From: a virus
Reading direction: 5' to 3' (one strand)
Virus genome (UHGV): UHGV-0024713
DNA length: 44,680 bases
Below the pieces are notes generated by a model, which was not told where the DNA came from, searched no databases, and was given only the letters and a program-made list of their open reading frames with translations. Of this stretch, positions 2,771 through 38,073 are shown piece after piece. The number at the start of each line of letters is the position of its first letter. The stretch's first letter is position 1. Position numbers and translations under genes: made by a program.

Positions 2771-2781
2771 TTTTTGCGCGC

Positions 2782-2826
2782 ATTGGTTGCCATTTTGAGT
2801 GTTTTTATCTGGCCGTATTGGTTGCC
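2782..2826 (+). promoter_or_regulatory. Direct-repeat pair of ATTGGTTGCC motif (copies at 2782-2791 and 2817-2826)
   Basis: Two identical 10-mers 35 bp apart directly after the primase-helicase stop; same motif recurs at about 10 other intergenic loci. Confidence 0.4.
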
Positions 2827-2876
2827 GTGTAGTGTGAGTATAGTGAATAGTTATGCAATAAATCTGCATAAACTAA

Positions 2877-2978
2877 GCGGGACAAAAAGCGGGACGGACC
2901 AGGGGCGGGACAAAGCGGGACAGCACCCCTGTCCCGCCCCGGATGACGCGGCCTGGCGGGGAGCGGGACAGCGGGACA
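2877..2978. repeat. Iteron array A: six direct GCGGGACA octamers plus one inverted copy, including palindrome GCGGGACAGCACCCCTGTCCCGC (2915-2937)
   Basis: Octamers at about 2877, 2889, 2905, 2915, 2963, 2971; inverted TGTCCCGC at 2930-2937; no credible ORF. Confidence 0.7.
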
Positions 2979-2984
2979 GCACCC

Positions 2985-3034
2985 CAGTCTTTCAGACTAG
3001 ACGGGGGGTCTGGCACCCCCCTCGTCTGAGACTG
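2985..3034. other. Long G/C-cored stem-loop A (CAGTCTTTCAGACTAGACGGGGGG-loop-CCCCCCTCGTCTGAGACTG), near-identical copy at 20035-20083
   Basis: Imperfect extended inverted repeat with G6/C6 core; partner differs mainly in the loop. Confidence 0.6.
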
Positions 3035-3097
3035 CATAAAATCCTGGACTGCATAACACACGGCAACATGATGCAAAGTGCGGTCGTCGATGAACTA

Positions 3098-3107
3098 GGC
3101 AACCAAT
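3098..3107 (-). promoter_or_regulatory. Single reverse-oriented copy of the recurring motif (GGCAACCAAT on + strand)
   Basis: Matches reverse complement of ATTGGTTGCC within the non-coding hub. Confidence 0.3.
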
Positions 3108-3188
3108 GCGAGTTGCAGAATGGTGGGTGAAAAATGCAGTTTGCAGTTACAGCAGATAGCGATCAACTTTTTCATACGCATGATTAAT

Positions 3189-3229
3189 ATTGGTTGCGTC
3201 CGCCCTGGCACCTTGCTATATTGGTTGCA
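3189..3229 (+). promoter_or_regulatory. sigma70-like promoter with embedded motif pair upstream of 3248..3556
   Basis: -35 TTGCGT (3194-3199) inside motif copy 1, 17-nt spacer, -10 TATATT (3217-3222) overlapping motif copy 2 ATTGGTTGCA (3220-3229). Confidence 0.5.
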
Positions 3230-3247
3230 CACCAACATGAGGACTGA

Positions 3248-3556
3248 ATGATGAAAGCGATTATCTGGAATTACTCCCTAGCCGTGGCAAAGTTGGACGA
3301 AGCGAAAGCACTGAACGGCAACATCGACCAGGCGCTTCAGGTTGCGATACTGGCCCACCAATCAATCCGTGATGCGCTCTACCGCATGGGCGCCAGCATG
3401 GACGAACTGAGGCCGTTGCGTATGGCAATCCACGAATACGCGCGGGCATTCTCCCGTGAGCGCCTGGCGTATCGCTTCGGTATTGGCGATAGGGCAGTGA
3501 CAAACGTCGCCAGGATTAAAGCCCAGCGCGAACTATTCGACCAGCTTGCGAAATAA
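3248..3556 (+). CDS. Hypothetical early protein (102 aa)
   Basis: ORF directly downstream of the promoter candidate; no recognisable motif. Confidence 0.5.
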   Translation: MMKAIIWNYSLAVAKLDEAKALNGNIDQALQVAILAHQSIRDALYRMGASMDELRPLRMAIHEYARAFSRERLAYRFGIGDRAVTNVARIKAQRELFDQLAK

Positions 3557-3565
3557 GGGGCCAAA

Positions 3566-3835
3566 ATGGGCCGCAGACGCGCTAAACAGCTTTCGTGGAG
3601 CATCCCACTGCATTGCATACGAATATGGGCTAAGAATGCGACTGAGGGCGATTCTGTATTCTGGTGCTATCGCGACGACGTGAAGCCACTGACGCAGACT
3701 CGCTACTTGCACCAGTTCGCGGCACAACACGATTTCAGGGTGCGGACTTCCTTGCAACCAATGGGAATACGTATTACATTACGCCGGAAGCCCGCCGTTG
3801 AGCGGGTAGGAAAACACTGGAGACTGAGCAAATGA
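3566..3835 (+). CDS. Hypothetical protein (89 aa)
   Basis: ORF in the same-strand early block, 10 nt after the preceding gene. Confidence 0.45.
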   Translation: MGRRRAKQLSWSIPLHCIRIWAKNATEGDSVFWCYRDDVKPLTQTRYLHQFAAQHDFRVRTSLQPMGIRITLRRKPAVERVGKHWRLSK

Positions 3836-3966
3836 TGATAGGCGGATTCTCGCAGGAGTTTATCTACCTGCATATGTGCGAACTTGACTACAAACAAAAC
3901 GGCATCGCTACGGTATGCGATGGCGACACGAAGACTATCGAAGAGATTGAGGAGACAGAGCAATGA
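3832..3966 (+). CDS. Small acidic hypothetical protein (44 aa), translationally coupled
   Basis: ATGA overlap with upstream stop and with downstream start at 3963; not in ORF track because under 60 aa. Confidence 0.35.
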   Translation: MMIGGFSQEFIYLHMCELDYKQNGIATVCDGDTKTIEEIEETEQ

Positions 3967-4580
3967 AATTACTATTCCGCCGTAAGCACGATGGTCGCAT
4001 CCTGAAGCCGATCCAGACCCTGGATTCCTACGTCCGCTTACAAAACGCGGCAGGCAATCGGGTCTGGTGGGCAGTGAAAAACAAGTTGCCGGAAAACTTT
4101 GAGGTACTCACTCACGATATTGAGCGCGGCGATGTGTTGCGTGATATTCGCGACGGTAGTATGTGGGTCGTCGAGTATGTCGGGCGTCATGGCCTGCGTA
4201 TGCAGAACCGCAAGGATGGCGTAGCGGGTATGACGTACTTCGGGCTAATCCACTACGAGCGCGTGGGGCGCAAATACAGCCTGCGTGCCCGCCAGCCGCA
4301 TGAGCGCGCGAACACCGAAGCGGATGCAGTTAACCGAGTAACGCGTGAGGTCGCACAGAAGACGCGCGTAGAGTTCCGCAAGTCACAGCCAGCCTATGCA
4401 ACCTACGACGCGAGCAAAGTGATGGAGCCGATCCGCCAGGCAACGCGTGAAATCATCAATCGCTTTGATGCCGTGACGAATGCACAGCGCCATGCGCAGG
4501 AATACGGCGTTGGATTCATCCGGGTAGAACGTGACGGCAGCATGAAAGCCATCGACCCGCGCTCGGTGATTCTGAAATGA
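3963..4580 (+). CDS. Hypothetical protein (205 aa)
   Basis: Long ORF, coupled to neighbours; no recognisable motif. Confidence 0.55.
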   Translation: MKLLFRRKHDGRILKPIQTLDSYVRLQNAAGNRVWWAVKNKLPENFEVLTHDIERGDVLRDIRDGSMWVVEYVGRHGLRMQNRKDGVAGMTYFGLIHYERVGRKYSLRARQPHERANTEADAVNRVTREVAQKTRVEFRKSQPAYATYDASKVMEPIRQATREIINRFDAVTNAQRHAQEYGVGFIRVERDGSMKAIDPRSVILK

Positions 4581-4714
4581 GTGCGACGATCCGTGATATG
4601 CTTCAGCATAACCGCTTTGAGATAGGCGGTCGGGTATTTCGCAATTACTTCGTGGCGCGTGCCTGGGCGCGCCATATTGGCAAACCAGAGGGGGCAATAC
4701 GATGCTACACGATG
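4577..4714 (+). CDS. Small hypothetical protein (about 45 aa)
   Basis: ATG overlaps stop of 3963..4580 (ATGA); ends overlapping start of 4702..4989. Confidence 0.3.
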
Positions 4715-4989
4715 TGATTTATTGGTTTGGCTTGGCCTGTGGGCTATCCCTGATCACGGCAGTGCTGGGCGCGATATGGGTATTCCTGATTTGGCCCGCG
4801 GGGGAAGCCGCCAGCATTACCCGCATGACGTTTCAGATGTACAAGCGCCGTGGCATCACGGAGCACCCGACCAGGTTGCGCATGTGGTGGCTGTGGTATC
4901 GCGATATGATAGGCGGGCGAACATTCGAAGCCGTCCGGTCGAGTGGATGGGAGTGGAAAGGCGTCGGCAAGTGGTCCATTTTCGATTAA
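4702..4989 (+). CDS. Small membrane protein (95 aa, N-terminal transmembrane helix)
   Basis: Hydrophobic segment FGLACGLSLITAVLGAIWVFLIW. Confidence 0.45.
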   Translation: MLHDVIYWFGLACGLSLITAVLGAIWVFLIWPAGEAASITRMTFQMYKRRGITEHPTRLRMWWLWYRDMIGGRTFEAVRSSGWEWKGVGKWSIFD

Positions 4990-5006
4990 TTATGCAAGCG
5001 TGATAT

Positions 5007-5042
5007 AGTCCCAGTGAGATAAAACTTACTGGGACTTTTTTT
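5007..5042 (+). terminator. Intrinsic terminator
   Basis: Perfect 9-bp stem AGTCCCAGT/ACTGGGACT followed by T7, ending one base before ATG at 5043. Confidence 0.7.
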
Positions 5043-5333
5043 ATGGATAAGCTAAACGAGTGGTTATTCGCCCTTGCGTGTCTTGCTGGTGGATTCGTGG
5101 GCGCACGCATTCATGGCGAGGCAACGAAAGGGCCGTTGAACTTCGTTTTATATGTAGTAGTTGGCTTCCTGTGTGCCATATTTGGTGCGCCAGCTATTGC
5201 CGAGTGGTCTGGCTTATCGGGCGAGCGCACTGTCGCCGGTTTGGGCTTCGTAACCGCAATCTTCTGGATGCCAATCGCCGACCGGATCAGGGAGACTATT
5301 GCGTCGTTCCGACTTCCGGGGGGTGCAAAATGA
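5043..5333 (+). CDS. Holin-like membrane protein (96 aa, about 3 transmembrane segments)
   Basis: Three hydrophobic helices; sits two genes upstream of the endolysin. Confidence 0.5.
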   Translation: MDKLNEWLFALACLAGGFVGARIHGEATKGPLNFVLYVVVGFLCAIFGAPAIAEWSGLSGERTVAGLGFVTAIFWMPIADRIRETIASFRLPGGAK

Positions 5334-12916: not shown

Positions 12917-13681
12917 TTATCGCGGAATACCGCAAATCTCGTTGAGAGTTTTCACGTCCAGCGCCACCGCCGTGGATTTTGGCTTGTCCGGGTATGGGAT
13001 GAATTGCTCAACTTCAGGCCACGCCTTAACCAGCTTCTTGTCAGTATTGTGCAGGTCCAGCACACCGGTAACGGTGAGTTTGAACGCATCATACTTCGCG
13101 CGCAACTCGCGACGGGCCTTGTCGTTACGGTCAAGGCGCTTACAGAAGTCATGGTCCGCCGGGTAGTCTACGCGACCGCGAGGGAGATATATCGGCAGCG
13201 CTTTCCCGTCCGCGTCAACTTCACATACTGACGCAAGCATAACCTCCTCGAACCCAGGTACGATATCGCCGAGATCGGGGGATAGCTTATTCATGTATTT
13301 ATATTCCCAGTATCCGCGATGTACGCGGTATTGGCGACCATCACCGCTCAAGGACAAGGTGCGAACATTTCCGCCTGCGTTGATTTCGAAAGTGGCGTCA
13401 TAAACGCGGCCTATACCCTTCGGGAGGCCTATGTCATAGCGATATGTTGCCTTGTTGGTGTAGACGCAGACGCAGTATATTGGCGACTTGGCACCTTCTA
13501 GTGCTTCGATGTGTGCGCGTAACTCGGCGAAAGTGCGAATGCCCTCCGGCATACAGTCCAGCGTGATTGCGTACGCCAGGTCGCGAGAGTCCATCATGAT
13601 TGATTTGGCTTCGGTAGCGATTTCATGGTCGCGCAGGATGTTAGCCAGAATCTGGTTTTTAATGTCTTTTGTCAGTCTCAT
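12917..13681 (-). CDS. Hypothetical protein (254 aa), antisense moron
   Basis: Start at internal ATG with GAGGA RBS; opposite strand to flanking structural genes; no recognisable motif. Confidence 0.6.
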   Translation of the reverse strand: MRLTKDIKNQILANILRDHEIATEAKSIMMDSRDLAYAITLDCMPEGIRTFAELRAHIEALEGAKSPIYCVCVYTNKATYRYDIGLPKGIGRVYDATFEINAGGNVRTLSLSGDGRQYRVHRGYWEYKYMNKLSPDLGDIVPGFEEVMLASVCEVDADGKALPIYLPRGRVDYPADHDFCKRLDRNDKARRELRAKYDAFKLTVTGVLDLHNTDKKLVKAWPEVEQFIPYPDKPKSTAVALDVKTLNEICGIPR

Positions 13682-13723
13682 TTTTGTGTCCTCGTGTTGG
13701 GGCTTTCGCCCCATTTGGCTTAG

Positions 13724-14131
13724 TTAAAGTGCTTCTAGAATCTCGTAAAACTTATTCGCCAGCGCCTGGCGGCGTTCGAATTTTTCAGTGATAACCAATT
13801 CCGGGCGGTTAAATAGCTTTGCGTGGGTGTTCCAATTGAGGATTTCCGTTTCCATTATTTTCTTCCGGTTGTAGTCGGTGTTTTTGATGCTAAATTCCTT
13901 GATAGCGTCATTAAGAAAATCAGTCATACACTCAACGTCTGTTCTCTTAACTTCGAACGAACGGGCCTCGATTGGGCTATTTGTGCGAAGTACGACGACT
14001 CCGCCGTGGTAGGTGTCGACTACCATATACTTATAAGTCACCCCATCCCACTCCGGATCGAAAGGGCGCCCAAATACGTCGTCGGCTTTCCACACTTTCT
14101 GGTACGGTGTTTCTTTGATTAATGTTGGCAT
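13724..14131 (-). CDS. Hypothetical protein (135 aa), antisense moron, AT-richer than surroundings
   Basis: AAGGA RBS; preceded on the minus strand by TTGCAA-18-TATATT with motif copies; visibly lower GC by eye. Confidence 0.6.
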   Translation of the reverse strand: MPTLIKETPYQKVWKADDVFGRPFDPEWDGVTYKYMVVDTYHGGVVVLRTNSPIEARSFEVKRTDVECMTDFLNDAIKEFSIKNTDYNRKKIMETEILNWNTHAKLFNRPELVITEKFERRQALANKFYEILEAL

Positions 14132-19770: not shown

Positions 19771-20029
19771 GCGGGACAAAACGGGACGTCCCGTTTTGTC
19801 CCGCCCCTGCAAAACTGCATATACAATCACTTCAATTGCATAAACTCAAAGCGGGACAGGCGGGACACCCCGTTTTGTCCCGCCCTGTAAATGTGCATAC
19901 CTATGCAGATCTCGTGCATAAAGTAAGCGGGACAGAAAGCGGGACAAACAAGGGGCGGGACAGAGCGGGACAGCACCCCGTCCCCGCCAGTGCTGCCGCG
20001 GTTTTTAGTCGATCGGGACAGGCGGGACA
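19771..20029. repeat. Iteron array B: about 10 GCGGGACA-type octamers in both orientations, including a perfect 34-bp palindrome (19771-19804)
   Basis: GCGGGACAAAACGGGAC/GTCCCGTTTTGTCCCGC; octamers at about 19851, 19860, 19927, 19939, 19955, 19965, 20013, 20022; 19915-19988 is near-identical to 2865-2940. Confidence 0.7.
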
Positions 20030-20034
20030 AACCA

Positions 20035-29015: not shown

Positions 29016-29039
29016 GGGGCCATCCGGCCCTTTTTTTTT
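29016..29039. terminator. Bidirectional intrinsic terminator between J (+) and the convergent minus-strand gene
   Basis: GGGGCC-atcc-GGCCC followed by T9; the T-run overlaps the minus-gene stop. Confidence 0.7.
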
Positions 29040-30003
29040 AATACATGTTAGGGATGACTAGTAGCGGGGTTGGTACGGCAATATTTTTACTTGGCATCTG
29101 GAATTGCTGCCGTGAGTAGTTGCCAATGACGCGGTTTTTTGCTATGCGCACATTATTGCCCGCCATTCGTATCCCGTTCATGCGAACGTGGTTATAGCCG
29201 CCGTTGTTCTCAATGAGCGCGCCGGTGTATGAGAGCTGGATCAGACTATTACCGATGTACTGGTCACCACCACCGATAGTAATCGTGCGGTCGTAGACAA
29301 ACGGCTTGTTTACCGTCGAGAACGTGACCTGACCCTGGTTGTTTGTCATGGTGATACCGGCCCCCGGTGAAGGCGGCGTATTGTTGAATATTACAAGGTC
29401 CATATCCACCGCAGCCGCCACATCGTCAATGCCACCATAGGACGCGTTGCGGACTATAATACTGCCGCCGTCGAAGCCGACGGATACGTTGCCGTCATCC
29501 CAGCGTGCAAACGGGACACCGCTAACAGGCAAGGGCATACTACCGTTGACGCGCACGCGCTGTGCGTATCGGCAGGTCATTAGCTTAGCTACGTTGGATA
29601 TTGCGGTGAAGTCCGTCGAGTTAGCCACCAGTAAGCCCGCGTTGCGTGAACCAACCGGCAGCACTTCCATTATGACGCCCGCCCATTGTGGTAAACCAGA
29701 GTACGCGCCATACGCATCCTCCCCGCGCAGGGTGATACCACTATTACCGTTGCGAGTAACCGACGTAATGTAAAACGGGTCGGGTATTACCAGGGTCTGG
29801 TCGAATACCTCAATCACGTCAACCGGATTAGTGAGGGCAACGACCAGTTCGGACCCAGGCGTTAGCTGGGTGTTAATGGTCAGCGTCTTGTCAGACTGAC
29901 AGCGCTGATTAAAGGTAGTGCAAAACGACGGCGCGCGTAGCCCGGCGGTTATCTCCATAACCGGACGCCCGTCGTTGTAGTCGATAAGTATTCCAGCACC
30001 CAT
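29038..30003 (-). CDS. Gly/Asn-rich beta-helix-like protein, candidate receptor-binding protein or tail spike
   Basis: Start at internal ATG with GGGAG RBS; repetitive VGFDGGS / IGGGDQY / NNGGYNH segments; co-oriented with the upstream lipoprotein. Confidence 0.4.
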   Translation of the reverse strand: MGAGILIDYNDGRPVMEITAGLRAPSFCTTFNQRCQSDKTLTINTQLTPGSELVVALTNPVDVIEVFDQTLVIPDPFYITSVTRNGNSGITLRGEDAYGAYSGLPQWAGVIMEVLPVGSRNAGLLVANSTDFTAISNVAKLMTCRYAQRVRVNGSMPLPVSGVPFARWDDGNVSVGFDGGSIIVRNASYGGIDDVAAAVDMDLVIFNNTPPSPGAGITMTNNQGQVTFSTVNKPFVYDRTITIGGGDQYIGNSLIQLSYTGALIENNGGYNHVRMNGIRMAGNNVRIAKNRVIGNYSRQQFQMPSKNIAVPTPLLVIPNMY

Positions 30004-30005
30004 TA

Positions 30006-30227
30006 TTACCACTCCCGTGATTTAACTGAAACAGTGCCGGAAAAATTGCCGTCACTATCGGCAGACAGACCAGTGAAACGCATGTCCACATTTCCGGAAG
30101 GGACTTTTTGCCCGTCAACGTAGCGCAACATGCAGCTACCGTAAGCCGTCGTAACGCAATCGCCGTTGTTGCGCTCCACAGCACAACCGGATAAAAGAAC
30201 CGCACAAATCATAATTAAAGTTTTCAT
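30006..30227 (-). CDS. Small outer-membrane lipoprotein (73 aa), candidate superinfection-exclusion protein
   Basis: Signal peptide MKTLIMICAVLLSGC with lipobox LSGC; two further Cys in the mature part; GGAGA RBS; motif-bearing promoter region upstream. Confidence 0.6.
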   Translation of the reverse strand: MKTLIMICAVLLSGCAVERNNGDCVTTAYGSCMLRYVDGQKVPSGNVDMRFTGLSADSDGNFSGTVSVKSREW

Positions 30228-33947: not shown

Positions 33948-34413
33948 GGAGTTCTCCTTCGCTCATTATTTCAATTTGTGCGCTGCCGAGGGGCGGCGCT
34001 TCGTCAAATATTATCAATTGCTGGCACTTGTTGTTACTCGGCCCGACCTTACCGGTGACGGCGTGAATGAATCTCACCCGCCAGTCCAGAAGAATTATCA
34101 GGTTTGCAGTCTTCCTGGCCAACTTCGCCCACTTCGTCGACGTGTCCTGATTCAGTAACATGACAGTCCGGCGACCGTGCGCTGCGCATTCCACCCACGG
34201 CAGCGGGTCGGAATACGGCGGATTACACCACTTCCACCCTTTCAACTCTGCCCAGTCCACATCAAGCGCGCTTCGCTCCGCCGTGAAGTAACGTGGTAGC
34301 AGATGATTGGCGTCGCTCGCCGCCATATCGTAACGGAATCGGAACTTACGGCGCAGCGGTTTAAATAAAGCTGGCGGTGTGCGCCAGCTATCTTTCTGCT
34401 CACTCTTCTGCAT
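33928..34413 (-). CDS. DNA N6-adenine methyltransferase (phage Dam-like)
   Basis: NPPY catalytic tetrapeptide in WKWCNPPYSD; size and layout of small phage adenine methyltransferases. Confidence 0.8.
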   Translation of the reverse strand: MQKSEQKDSWRTPPALFKPLRRKFRFRYDMAASDANHLLPRYFTAERSALDVDWAELKGWKWCNPPYSDPLPWVECAAHGRRTVMLLNQDTSTKWAKLARKTANLIILLDWRVRFIHAVTGKVGPSNNKCQQLIIFDEAPPLGSAQIEIMSEGELLEYLNR

Positions 34414-34855
34414 GGTCTTGATCTATCGCGTACAGGGCAATTTTCTTACCACTGTTTAGAACGCGTTGCAGGCGCTTTGCACCCTCGATGCTAAGCGGTC
34501 GGCAATCGGAGTAGCCACCGTTTGTGCGCCACGCCATAAGCACCAAGTCTTTACGGTCGATCTTAGACTGGCGACCTTTAGGTCGTACGTACTCCTCGGC
34601 GCGTTTGCAATGCTCGCGCAGACCTTCGGCAGTGATGCGGTTTAGCGCCACGCTGGTGGTGTATCCTGTGCGCTGCATAATCCCCATCAGTTCGAAGAGA
34701 AGTCCGAAGCGTTCCGCTAACTCCTGGCGCACTTTCTTCTCTCCTTCATATAGCGCCTGGTTGGTGTCCGCTAGCGCGTTCGCGCGTTCGGCTTGTTCGC
34801 GGGCTTCGAGACACTGCGCGGCCCAGTATGCTTTTTCTTCTTGTAAGATTTTCAT
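34400..34855 (-). CDS. Hypothetical protein (151 aa), coiled-coil N-terminus
   Basis: ORF overlapping the methyltransferase start; no recognisable motif. Confidence 0.5.
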   Translation of the reverse strand: MKILQEEKAYWAAQCLEAREQAERANALADTNQALYEGEKKVRQELAERFGLLFELMGIMQRTGYTTSVALNRITAEGLREHCKRAEEYVRPKGRQSKIDRKDLVLMAWRTNGGYSDCRPLSIEGAKRLQRVLNSGKKIALYAIDQDHAEE

Positions 34856-35107
34856 TTATTTAATCTCCGTAGTGCGGATTTCATCGCGTGGGATAAATTT
34901 GCCGTCCATCTCCACCCAGCATACGCCGTAGCGCCATTGGGTGTTACGACCCGTTTGCTCTGTGTACACAGTCTCGCATTTGTAGCGGTCCGCGTAGTAA
35001 ACGCCCACGACACCCGCGATAGGTACGAAAACACAAACGGCAAGCATGAGGGTAAGAATTACCCAAAATCTAAGTTCGCCATAAATGTCGAAAAATAGGG
35101 ATTTCAT
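34856..35107 (-). CDS. Small membrane protein (83 aa)
   Basis: Internal ATG with GGAGA RBS; one hydrophobic helix. Confidence 0.45.
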   Translation of the reverse strand: MKSLFFDIYGELRFWVILTLMLAVCVFVPIAGVVGVYYADRYKCETVYTEQTGRNTQWRYGVCWVEMDGKFIPRDEIRTTEIK

Positions 35108-37899: not shown

Positions 37900-38073
37900 T
37901 TATTTTTGTTCCGCACGGTAGCGGCGCTGCCGTTCGCGCTCTTTCTTATTGCGGCACGATTTGCACTCGGCCCGATACCCGTCTGGACTGCGCGCAGTTT
38001 TACCGGTGTATTTGTGGAACTGGGATAGCGGCTTGACGCAGCCGCAGTTACTACAACGTTTTTCTTCAATCAT
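37900..38073 (-). CDS. Small zinc-ribbon protein (57 aa)
   Basis: CSNCGC...CKSC four-Cys pattern; start at internal ATG. Confidence 0.4.
   Translation of the reverse strand: MIEEKRCSNCGCVKPLSQFHKYTGKTARSPDGYRAECKSCRNKKERERQRRYRAEQK

Follow-up and report, generated by a model that had tools for sequence, protein, structure and literature searches.

Organization of the locus

The window analyzed here is the whole 44,680-nucleotide (nt) sequence of UHGV virus genome UHGV-0024713, a complete, circularly closed Dhillonvirus genome (a HK578/SSL-2009a-like, virulent siphophage of Escherichia coli) whose two ends become contiguous once they are mapped on phage SM_S22. Our target was a block of six small open reading frames (ORFs) at positions 3248-4989 of the + strand. 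The block is an ordinary accessory operon of a known kind, and its small proteins are probably non-enzymatic. The original prediction had described six co-directional ORFs in this interval and all were found where it placed them; the end that it gave for ORF5 (4714) left out the stop codon (4717). The genes and signals of the block are as follows.

3189-3228 (+), promoter candidate read from the sequence, with two ATTGGTTGC boxes, a -35 and an extended -10
3239-3243 (+), Shine-Dalgarno sequence GAGGA of ORF1, part of a reusable 5' untranslated region (5'UTR) cassette, TATATTGGTTGCACACCAACA..GAGGA
3248-3556 (+), ORF1, 102 amino acids (aa), phrog_9839 (E = 2e-51)
3566-3835 (+), ORF2, 89 aa, phrog_12533 (E = 7e-58)
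3832-3966 (+), ORF3, 44 aa, phrog_15977 (E = 6e-25)
3963-4580 (+), ORF4, 205 aa, phrog_10243 (E = 1e-102)
4577-4717 (+), ORF5, 46 aa, phrog_13628 (E = 5e-38)
4702-4989 (+), ORF6, 95 aa, phrog_2531/VOG4863 (E = 1e-34)
5007-5042 (+), putative intrinsic terminator, with a 12-bp stem and 6-nt loop at 5007-5036 and seven T at 5036-5042

Each ORF matches essentially the whole profile of its PHROG family, and none of the six families has an assigned function; homologues of the block genes carry the label 'hypothetical protein' in over 150 genomes of this well-sampled group of E. coli phages. Matches to the region 2771-5045 were found in 159 phage records; in 103 of these the match spans 80% or more of the region, with 85-89% of nucleotides identical. 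The Dhillonvirus homologues (HK578 gp49-gp54, Sodalis phage SO-1 gp50-gp53 and SECphi18 gp08-gp12) are full-length matches with the same order and the same junctions, and show no essential difference from the block studied here. The conserved start of ORF1 is probably its second ATG, at 3251. Stop and start codons overlap as ATGA at the ORF2/3, ORF3/4 and ORF4/5 junctions, and the two tiny ORFs of fewer than 60 aa are coupled in this way, as had been claimed, ORF3 at both of its ends and ORF5 to ORF4. The overlap between ORF5 and ORF6 is one of 16 nt and not an ATGA, and a 9-nt gap separates ORF1 from ORF2. Shine-Dalgarno sequences are good at ORF1, ORF2, ORF4 and ORF6 and weak at ORF3 and ORF5, which fits translational coupling of the latter two.

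Coding status and protein evidence

Counts of variable sites by codon position and of the ratio of non-synonymous to synonymous substitution (dN/dS) were obtained from an alignment of 17 distinct relatives, those for ORF3 from a family-restricted codon alignment. Variable sites at the three codon positions numbered 6/7/27 in ORF5 (dN/dS 0.11), 28/23/58 in ORF2 (0.18), 29/20/55 in ORF6 (0.22), 19/14/34 in ORF3 (0.24), 129/105/174 in ORF4 (0.37) and 60/53/85 in ORF1 (0.44). The alternative + strand frames gave dN/dS values of 0.9-2.4, and minus-strand ORFs carry in-frame stops in 4 to 13 of the 17 relatives. In every one of the six ORFs the substitutions are biased toward the third codon position. 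All six ORFs are real, translationally coupled genes. In-frame conservation of the two tiny ORFs, on which the original prediction had staked itself, was found for both, with purifying selection acting on ORF5 as well as on ORF3.

Protein evidence is available from a pull-down and mass spectrometry table on SECphi18-infected cells (bioRxiv 10.1101/2024.01.31.578182, Table S2), in which the homologues of ORF1 (5 peptides, 52% coverage), ORF2 (6 peptides, 68%), ORF4 (9 peptides, 52%) and ORF6 (3 peptides, 23%) were detected, and in which intensities rose about 10-fold between 0 and 30 min. The homologues of these four ORFs accumulate during infection; those of ORF3 and ORF5 are not in the table.

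It is very improbable that the tiny ORFs, or the entire block, are chance frames or coupling spacers that yield no functional peptide. Such a reading would draw on the missing entries for ORF3 and ORF5 in the SECphi18 table, on the fact that ORF5 is unannotated in several relatives (SECphi18 among them) and on the absence of ORF3 from about one third of the genomes, but it is largely refuted by the codon-position data: the ORF5 protein is 89-100% identical among relatives, with variation concentrated as given above, the dN/dS of ORF3 is 0.24 in frame as compared with 1.1-1.4 in the other frames, and each of the two owns a PHROG family.

Two other + strand ORFs, both upstream of the block, were tried as genes and rejected. 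The ORF at 3120-3251 is ATGA-coupled to ORF1, but its variable sites (16/12/11) and dN/dS of 0.67 do not support a gene, its start and stop vary among relatives and it overlies promoter DNA. The ORF at 2774-3130 has a dN/dS of 1.06 with no coding signature. Together the two cover the repeat and promoter DNA. Both carry gene annotations in some relatives, such as gp06 (2774-3130) and gp07 (3120-3251) of SECphi18, and the latter is also annotated in HK578.

Properties of the individual proteins

The six proteins were searched against Pfam, NCBIfam, PADLOC and PDB sequences with zero significant matches, and the claim that none of them carries a recognizable motif is upheld.

ORF1 models as a four-helix bundle. 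Its C-terminal helical hairpin (residues 56-102) is invariant and its N-terminal half is a mosaic. ORF1 was also considered as a helix-turn-helix (HTH) DNA-binding regulator; this was rejected, as neither a compact HTH fold nor a match to an HTH family was found.

ORF2 is very basic, with an isoelectric point (pI) of 11.3, and is restricted to the genus, where it was found in 157 records and is 75-97% identical among relatives; in the slur05/06 type it is truncated at the N-terminus. As a candidate arginine-rich antiterminator of the lambda N type it was rejected, a BLASTP comparison with the lambda N sequence giving E = 89.

ORF3 is acidic (pI 4.1), and its C-terminus, GIATVCDGDTKTxxEIEETEQ, is conserved. 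The gene is real but facultative: 12 of the 17 loci and about 100 phage records (of 157 genomes) have it, three loci lack it, an unrelated basic gene of 50-54 aa takes its place in two, and in HK578 it is truncated. Two additional small genes come and go in the same neighborhood. A 33-aa hydrophobic membrane peptide (MLYVFAVVCGGSLAALVLL...) lies between the ORF5 and ORF6 homologues in six of the 17 loci (L004, L007, L008, L009, L014 and L018), and a 59-aa gp48/gp49-like gene stands ahead of the ORF1 homologue in four (L001, L011, L014 and L018). The phage studied here has the ORF3-type slot gene and neither of these two extra genes.

ORF4 is very basic and shows 36-91% identity across the genus. 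An exhaustive hidden Markov model (HMM) search gave 23 hits among 1.84 billion representatives, all or nearly all of them complete or partial members of this one family, and proteins of 114 and 87 aa are the most distant of them; ORF4 thus belongs to an orphan family. Its model, confident over residues 1-105, predicts two five-stranded, Tudor/SH3-like barrels in tandem (residues 4-50 and 57-103), followed by two long helices and a beta-hairpin that are modeled with low confidence. The helical linker is variable, and the C-terminal helix and beta-hairpin (approximately residues 150-205) are conserved. Two natural rearrangements keep both the reading frame and the coupling: in phage JL1 (L022, 2183-2452) an in-frame deletion has removed both ORF4 barrels, and in phage BF9 (L021, 1937-2517) an ORF3-like N-terminus is fused to the last 50 or so ORF4 residues and a new 56-aa ORF is present. 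Taken together, the deletion and the fusion indicate that the C-terminal module is the constant part of ORF4 and that the barrels are dispensable.

By fold, the modeled ORF4 barrels conform to the five-stranded small beta-barrel of the UvrD/PcrA Tudor domains and of the RNA-polymerase-interacting domains of CarD/TRCF, and they resemble in particular the RNA-polymerase-docking Tudor-like domains of UvrD/PcrA (PDB 7egs, 5dma) and CarD (4l5g). By sequence, Pfam and the exhaustive HMM search gave no membership in the UvrD/PcrA Tudor or CarD/TRCF families. Comparisons with hhalign gave probabilities below 2% both for an internal sequence repeat in ORF4 and for kinship of the small slot genes with its barrels. 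A fold search in BFVD returned only ORF4's own family, plus matches with TM values of 0.2-0.27 that are too weak to use; these include a Bacillus phage 'host shutoff protein'.

The divergent parts of ORF1 and ORF4 were examined for positive selection, which was not seen: sliding-window dN/dS was at most 0.62 and never above 1, with synonymous sites saturated. These values indicate that the divergence consists of old alleles shuffled by recombination rather than of demonstrable positive selection.

ORF5 is basic and better conserved than any other gene of the block; it is present in all 17 loci and in 152 records. ORF6 combines a single transmembrane helix at its N-terminus with a C-terminal domain rich in Trp. 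It matched 482 phage records, about 300 of which are Jerseyviruses at 31-36% identity, and its family (VOG4863) is a conserved membrane protein common to two siphophage groups. The Jerseyvirus relatives, for example those of two Salmonella Jerseyviruses (L019 and L020, at 3504-3803 in each), lie between lysozyme/NinH-like ORFs and terS. Compared with holins, antiholins and spanins, ORF6 has one N-terminal hydrophobic helix only, and the terminator stands between it and the two annotated holins.

Promoter candidate, terminator and holin junction

The promoter candidate consists of a -35 (TTGCGT, 3194-3199) tied to the ATTGGTTGC box at 3189-3197, a 17-nt spacer and then an extended -10 (TGcTATATT, 3214-3222), with a second ATTGGTTGC box at 3220-3228. 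Across the 17 relatives its hexamers are conserved and its spacer is variable. The earlier proposal of a promoter ahead of the block thus gains from the conserved hexamers and extended -10, and is weakened by a score (8/12) that lies below the threshold of a consensus scan. The cassette TATATTGGTTGCACACCAACA..GAGGA also stands ahead of the minus-strand Nmad5 operon, both here and in SM_S22; the copy in the present phage has one mismatch in the box and GAAGGA in place of GAGGA.

At the other end of the block, the hairpin at 5007-5042 has the attributes of an intrinsic (Rho-independent) terminator as judged from its sequence, with a folding energy of -22.2 kcal/mol (z = -7.2 relative to shuffled sequences), and the strong terminator that had been described there stands. 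Its stem is invariant in the 17 relatives, with variation limited to the loop and to the length of the T-run, and Rfam gave no family above threshold for it. The first T of the run (5036) also closes the stem, and the holin ATG follows directly after the run, at 5043, without a Shine-Dalgarno sequence. Across 17 genomes the 77 nt that join terminator and holin (4975-5051) hardly vary and are much better conserved than the genes on either side. An extended -10-like sequence, TGATATAGT, at 5001-5009 runs into the terminator's 5' arm; it may be a promoter nested in the terminator, with holin transcripts starting inside the hairpin.

The conservation of this junction relative to its neighbors and the missing Shine-Dalgarno sequence of the holin would be expected if the block controlled late genes or the timing of lysis, either through a product that regulates the passage of RNA polymerase at the terminator or through an ORF6 that modulates the holin at the membrane. 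The position of the block, which mirrors that of lambda Q, tR' and S, and the lysis/terS neighborhood of the Jerseyvirus ORF6 relatives agree with such a role. We nevertheless consider it quite unlikely, because ORF2 is unlike lambda N (BLASTP E = 89), there is no Pfam match, Q-type antiterminators included, and no feature of a holin or spanin was seen in ORF6, which has one transmembrane helix. In addition, no nut- or qut-like element was identified, in a nut search that was not exhaustive, and TGATATAGT could start holin transcripts without an antiterminator.

Genomic neighborhood

Upstream of the block are a sigma-region-4-like HTH gene (166-495) and then a replicative helicase-primase gene (500-2770), which is separated from the block by a 478-nt intergenic region rich in repeats and iterons. 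Downstream, and on the + strand throughout, are two holin genes and an endolysin gene, followed by packaging and structural genes, and the block shares its strand with the lysis and structural genes. No terminator was found between the upstream replication operon and the block. Direct and inverted repeats of the GCGGGACAG type form two clusters, at 2877-2979 and 19771-20030, which correspond to 'region B' and 'region A', respectively, of the annotation of Sodalis phage SO-1 and are candidate iterons or origins; the first of them sits between the helicase-primase gene and the block.

The helicase-primase gene and the GCGGGACAG iteron cluster lie immediately upstream, which raises the question of whether the block encodes accessory factors of replication or recombination, with ORF2 binding DNA and the ORF4 barrels docking on a helicase or polymerase. 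The very basic character of ORF2 and ORF4, and the universal presence and strong constraint of ORF2 and ORF5 in the genus, are in line with this. It is unlikely all the same, given zero homology to replication or recombination families in Pfam and NCBIfam, the loss of the ORF4 barrels in the viable phages JL1 and BF9, the truncated ORF2 of the slur05/06 type, and a block with its own promoter candidate and terminator.

Functional interpretation of the block

We give an approximately even chance to the interpretation that the block is a non-structural accessory operon comparable to the nin region of lambda, probably expressed before the late genes, with products that target the nucleic-acid machinery of the host or the phage and the cell envelope. 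The nin region lies between replication gene P and Q. Like it, the block is a series of small ORFs in one direction whose stop and start codons overlap, lies between replication and late/lysis genes and is partly dispensable, and the Jerseyvirus relatives of ORF6 adjoin NinH-like ORFs. Unlike it, the block has no Pfam or NCBIfam match to the Nin families (NinB/Orf, NinG/Rap, NinH and others), has its own promoter candidate and terminator, and belongs to a virulent phage.

Under this nin-like interpretation, the sigma-70 RNA polymerase of the host would start near 3229 at the extended -10 promoter, the -35 of which lies inside the ATTGGTTGC box, and transcripts running on from the replication operon upstream may contribute, because no terminator was found in between. 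Ribosomes would then re-initiate from ORF2 through ORF6, which would explain why the natural deletions and fusions of the relatives have kept the frame and the junctions. The products would act by binding and not as enzymes. ORF1 would be a four-helix bundle whose N-terminal hairpin can be swapped, ORF2 a very basic and probably nucleic-acid-binding protein, ORF3 an optional acidic peptide, ORF4 a modular adaptor in which the C-terminal module is always kept and the two Tudor/SH3-like barrels are dispensable, ORF5 a tightly constrained basic peptide of 46 aa and ORF6 a single-pass protein of the inner membrane.

The original interpretation holds in part: an early role, and host takeover or anti-defense as functions of the block, have circumstantial support only. 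The N-terminal half of ORF1, ORF3 and the ORF4 barrels are candidates for host-takeover or counter-defense roles. One circumstantial point is the ATTGGTTGC box that the block shares with the genes for an anti-Tmn homologue, a 'Lar-like' protein, Nmad5 and a Cor-like lipoprotein; another is the combination of facultative slots, mosaic and divergent alleles of both ORF1 and ORF4, and natural loss of most of ORF4 in viable phages.

Several observations weigh against the interpretation that we favor. Nearly all members of the genus have ORF2, ORF5 and ORF6, and the three are under strong constraint, a pattern that fits core development functions better than counter-defense, and the divergent segments have dN/dS values of 0.5-0.6, never above 1, at saturated synonymous sites. 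The four Dhillonvirus counter-defense or trigger genes that could be placed (anti-Tmn, Ksap1, a 56-aa protein and Nmad5) map outside the block, and a common promoter motif is guilt by association. The consensus scan flagged no promoter before ORF1, and no Dhillonvirus transcript, transcription start site or timing data were found in the searchable literature.

The characterized counter-defense and trigger genes of Dhillonviruses are anti-Tmn and Nmad5 (PMC11846954) and Ksap1 (PMC11564622). Like the block genes, they encode small, genus-restricted proteins with sequence-variable alleles, and a ATTGGTTGC box precedes the anti-Tmn homologue and the Nmad5 operon; they are unrelated to the block genes in sequence and located elsewhere, the anti-Tmn homologue at 34400-34855 (-), Nmad5 at 12917-13714 (-), and Ksap1 being flanked in SECphi18 by genes for a methyltransferase and a phosphatase. 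The block ORFs have no homology to, or orthologous position with, anti-Tmn and Ksap1, in comparisons that did not include a dedicated anti-defense HMM library. Also outside the block are the 56-aa protein, which is encoded beside the DNA polymerase gene, and the RAZR trigger, a portal-like structural protein.

Dhillonviruses (SECphi18, SECphi4 and Bas14-18) are standard test phages of defense-system research. What our analysis adds is that the two tiny ORFs are real, ORF5 being one that is often left unannotated, that ORF4 is modular with Tudor-like heads, as modeled, that are dispensable, and that the block has a putative promoter motif in common with experimentally validated counter-defense genes. 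The outcome is a short and concrete list of candidates for deletion and for defense-panel screens; should no block gene affect host range, the block would be a nin-like accessory region of routine interest.

Distribution of the ATTGGTTGC box

The 9-mer ATTGGTTGC occurs in 13 copies in the window, as compared with 0.57 expected, and is often paired. The copies are at 2782, 2817, 3099(-), 3189, 3220, 3754(-), 14176(-), 30283(-), 33258, 35162(-), 35179(-), 38130(-) and 44647, and SM_S22 has 16, orthologous sites included. Several boxes supply the -35 (TTGCNN) of promoter-like sites ahead of accessory genes. A -10 matching at least five of six positions at a distance of 17 nt was found for three of the 13 exact boxes (background 0.6%), namely the block promoter, 35187(-) and 38138(-), and ATTGGTTGC may define a phage-specific class of promoter or an operator. 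The sites outside the block and the genes that follow them are listed below.

Box 35187(-), ahead of genes for a membrane protein (83 aa) and for a 151-aa protein with 78% identity to SM_S22 CDS0035; -10 of 5/6 at 17 nt
Box 38138(-), ahead of a 57-aa phrog_5558 'Lar-like' protein; -10 of 5/6 at 17 nt
Box 30291(-), ahead of a phage lipoprotein and a DUF6453 membrane protein; -10 of 4/6 only
Box 14184(-), ahead of a 135-aa protein and Nmad5; candidate promoter recognized by eye, the box falling within its spacer

These sites suggest a further interpretation, which we regard as doubtful, in which the block is one of at least five units of a phage-specific, ATTGGTTGC-marked regulon that may be read by the HTH protein encoded at 166-495, its genes are counter-defense or takeover effectors, and ORF4 is a modular adaptor with exchangeable Tudor-like heads that target host RNA polymerase or a defense sensor. 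The other units would be those of the anti-Tmn homologue, nmad5, the 'Lar-like' gene and the Cor-like lipoprotein gene, with the box at or next to the -35. The box ahead of the Nmad5 unit, together with its 5'UTR, is a near-copy of that of the block.

SM_S22 CDS0035 is probably the anti-Tmn protein ORF35, since it has the same number and its size and sequence are compatible with the description in PMC11846954, where Nmad5 is the trigger of Tmn. Its homologue in the present phage, the 151-aa protein at 34400-34855 (-), matches phrog_10530, which is labeled 'DNA ligase', and an extra gene for an 83-aa membrane protein (phrog_18961, 34856-35107 (-)) is inserted between this CDS0035-like gene and its promoter. 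The Nmad5 unit at 12917-14131 (-) has two genes and is embedded in the + strand head module; it comprises the 135-aa protein, without a family match, and Nmad5 itself (12917-13714 (-), 265 aa, PF18757, E = 2e-55). The unit at 29038-30227 (-) comprises the phage lipoprotein (PF24052, a weak Cor match) and the DUF6453 membrane protein, and the 57-aa protein at 37903-38073 (-) is a zinc-ribbon protein whose family, phrog_5558, is labeled 'Lar-like restriction alleviation'.

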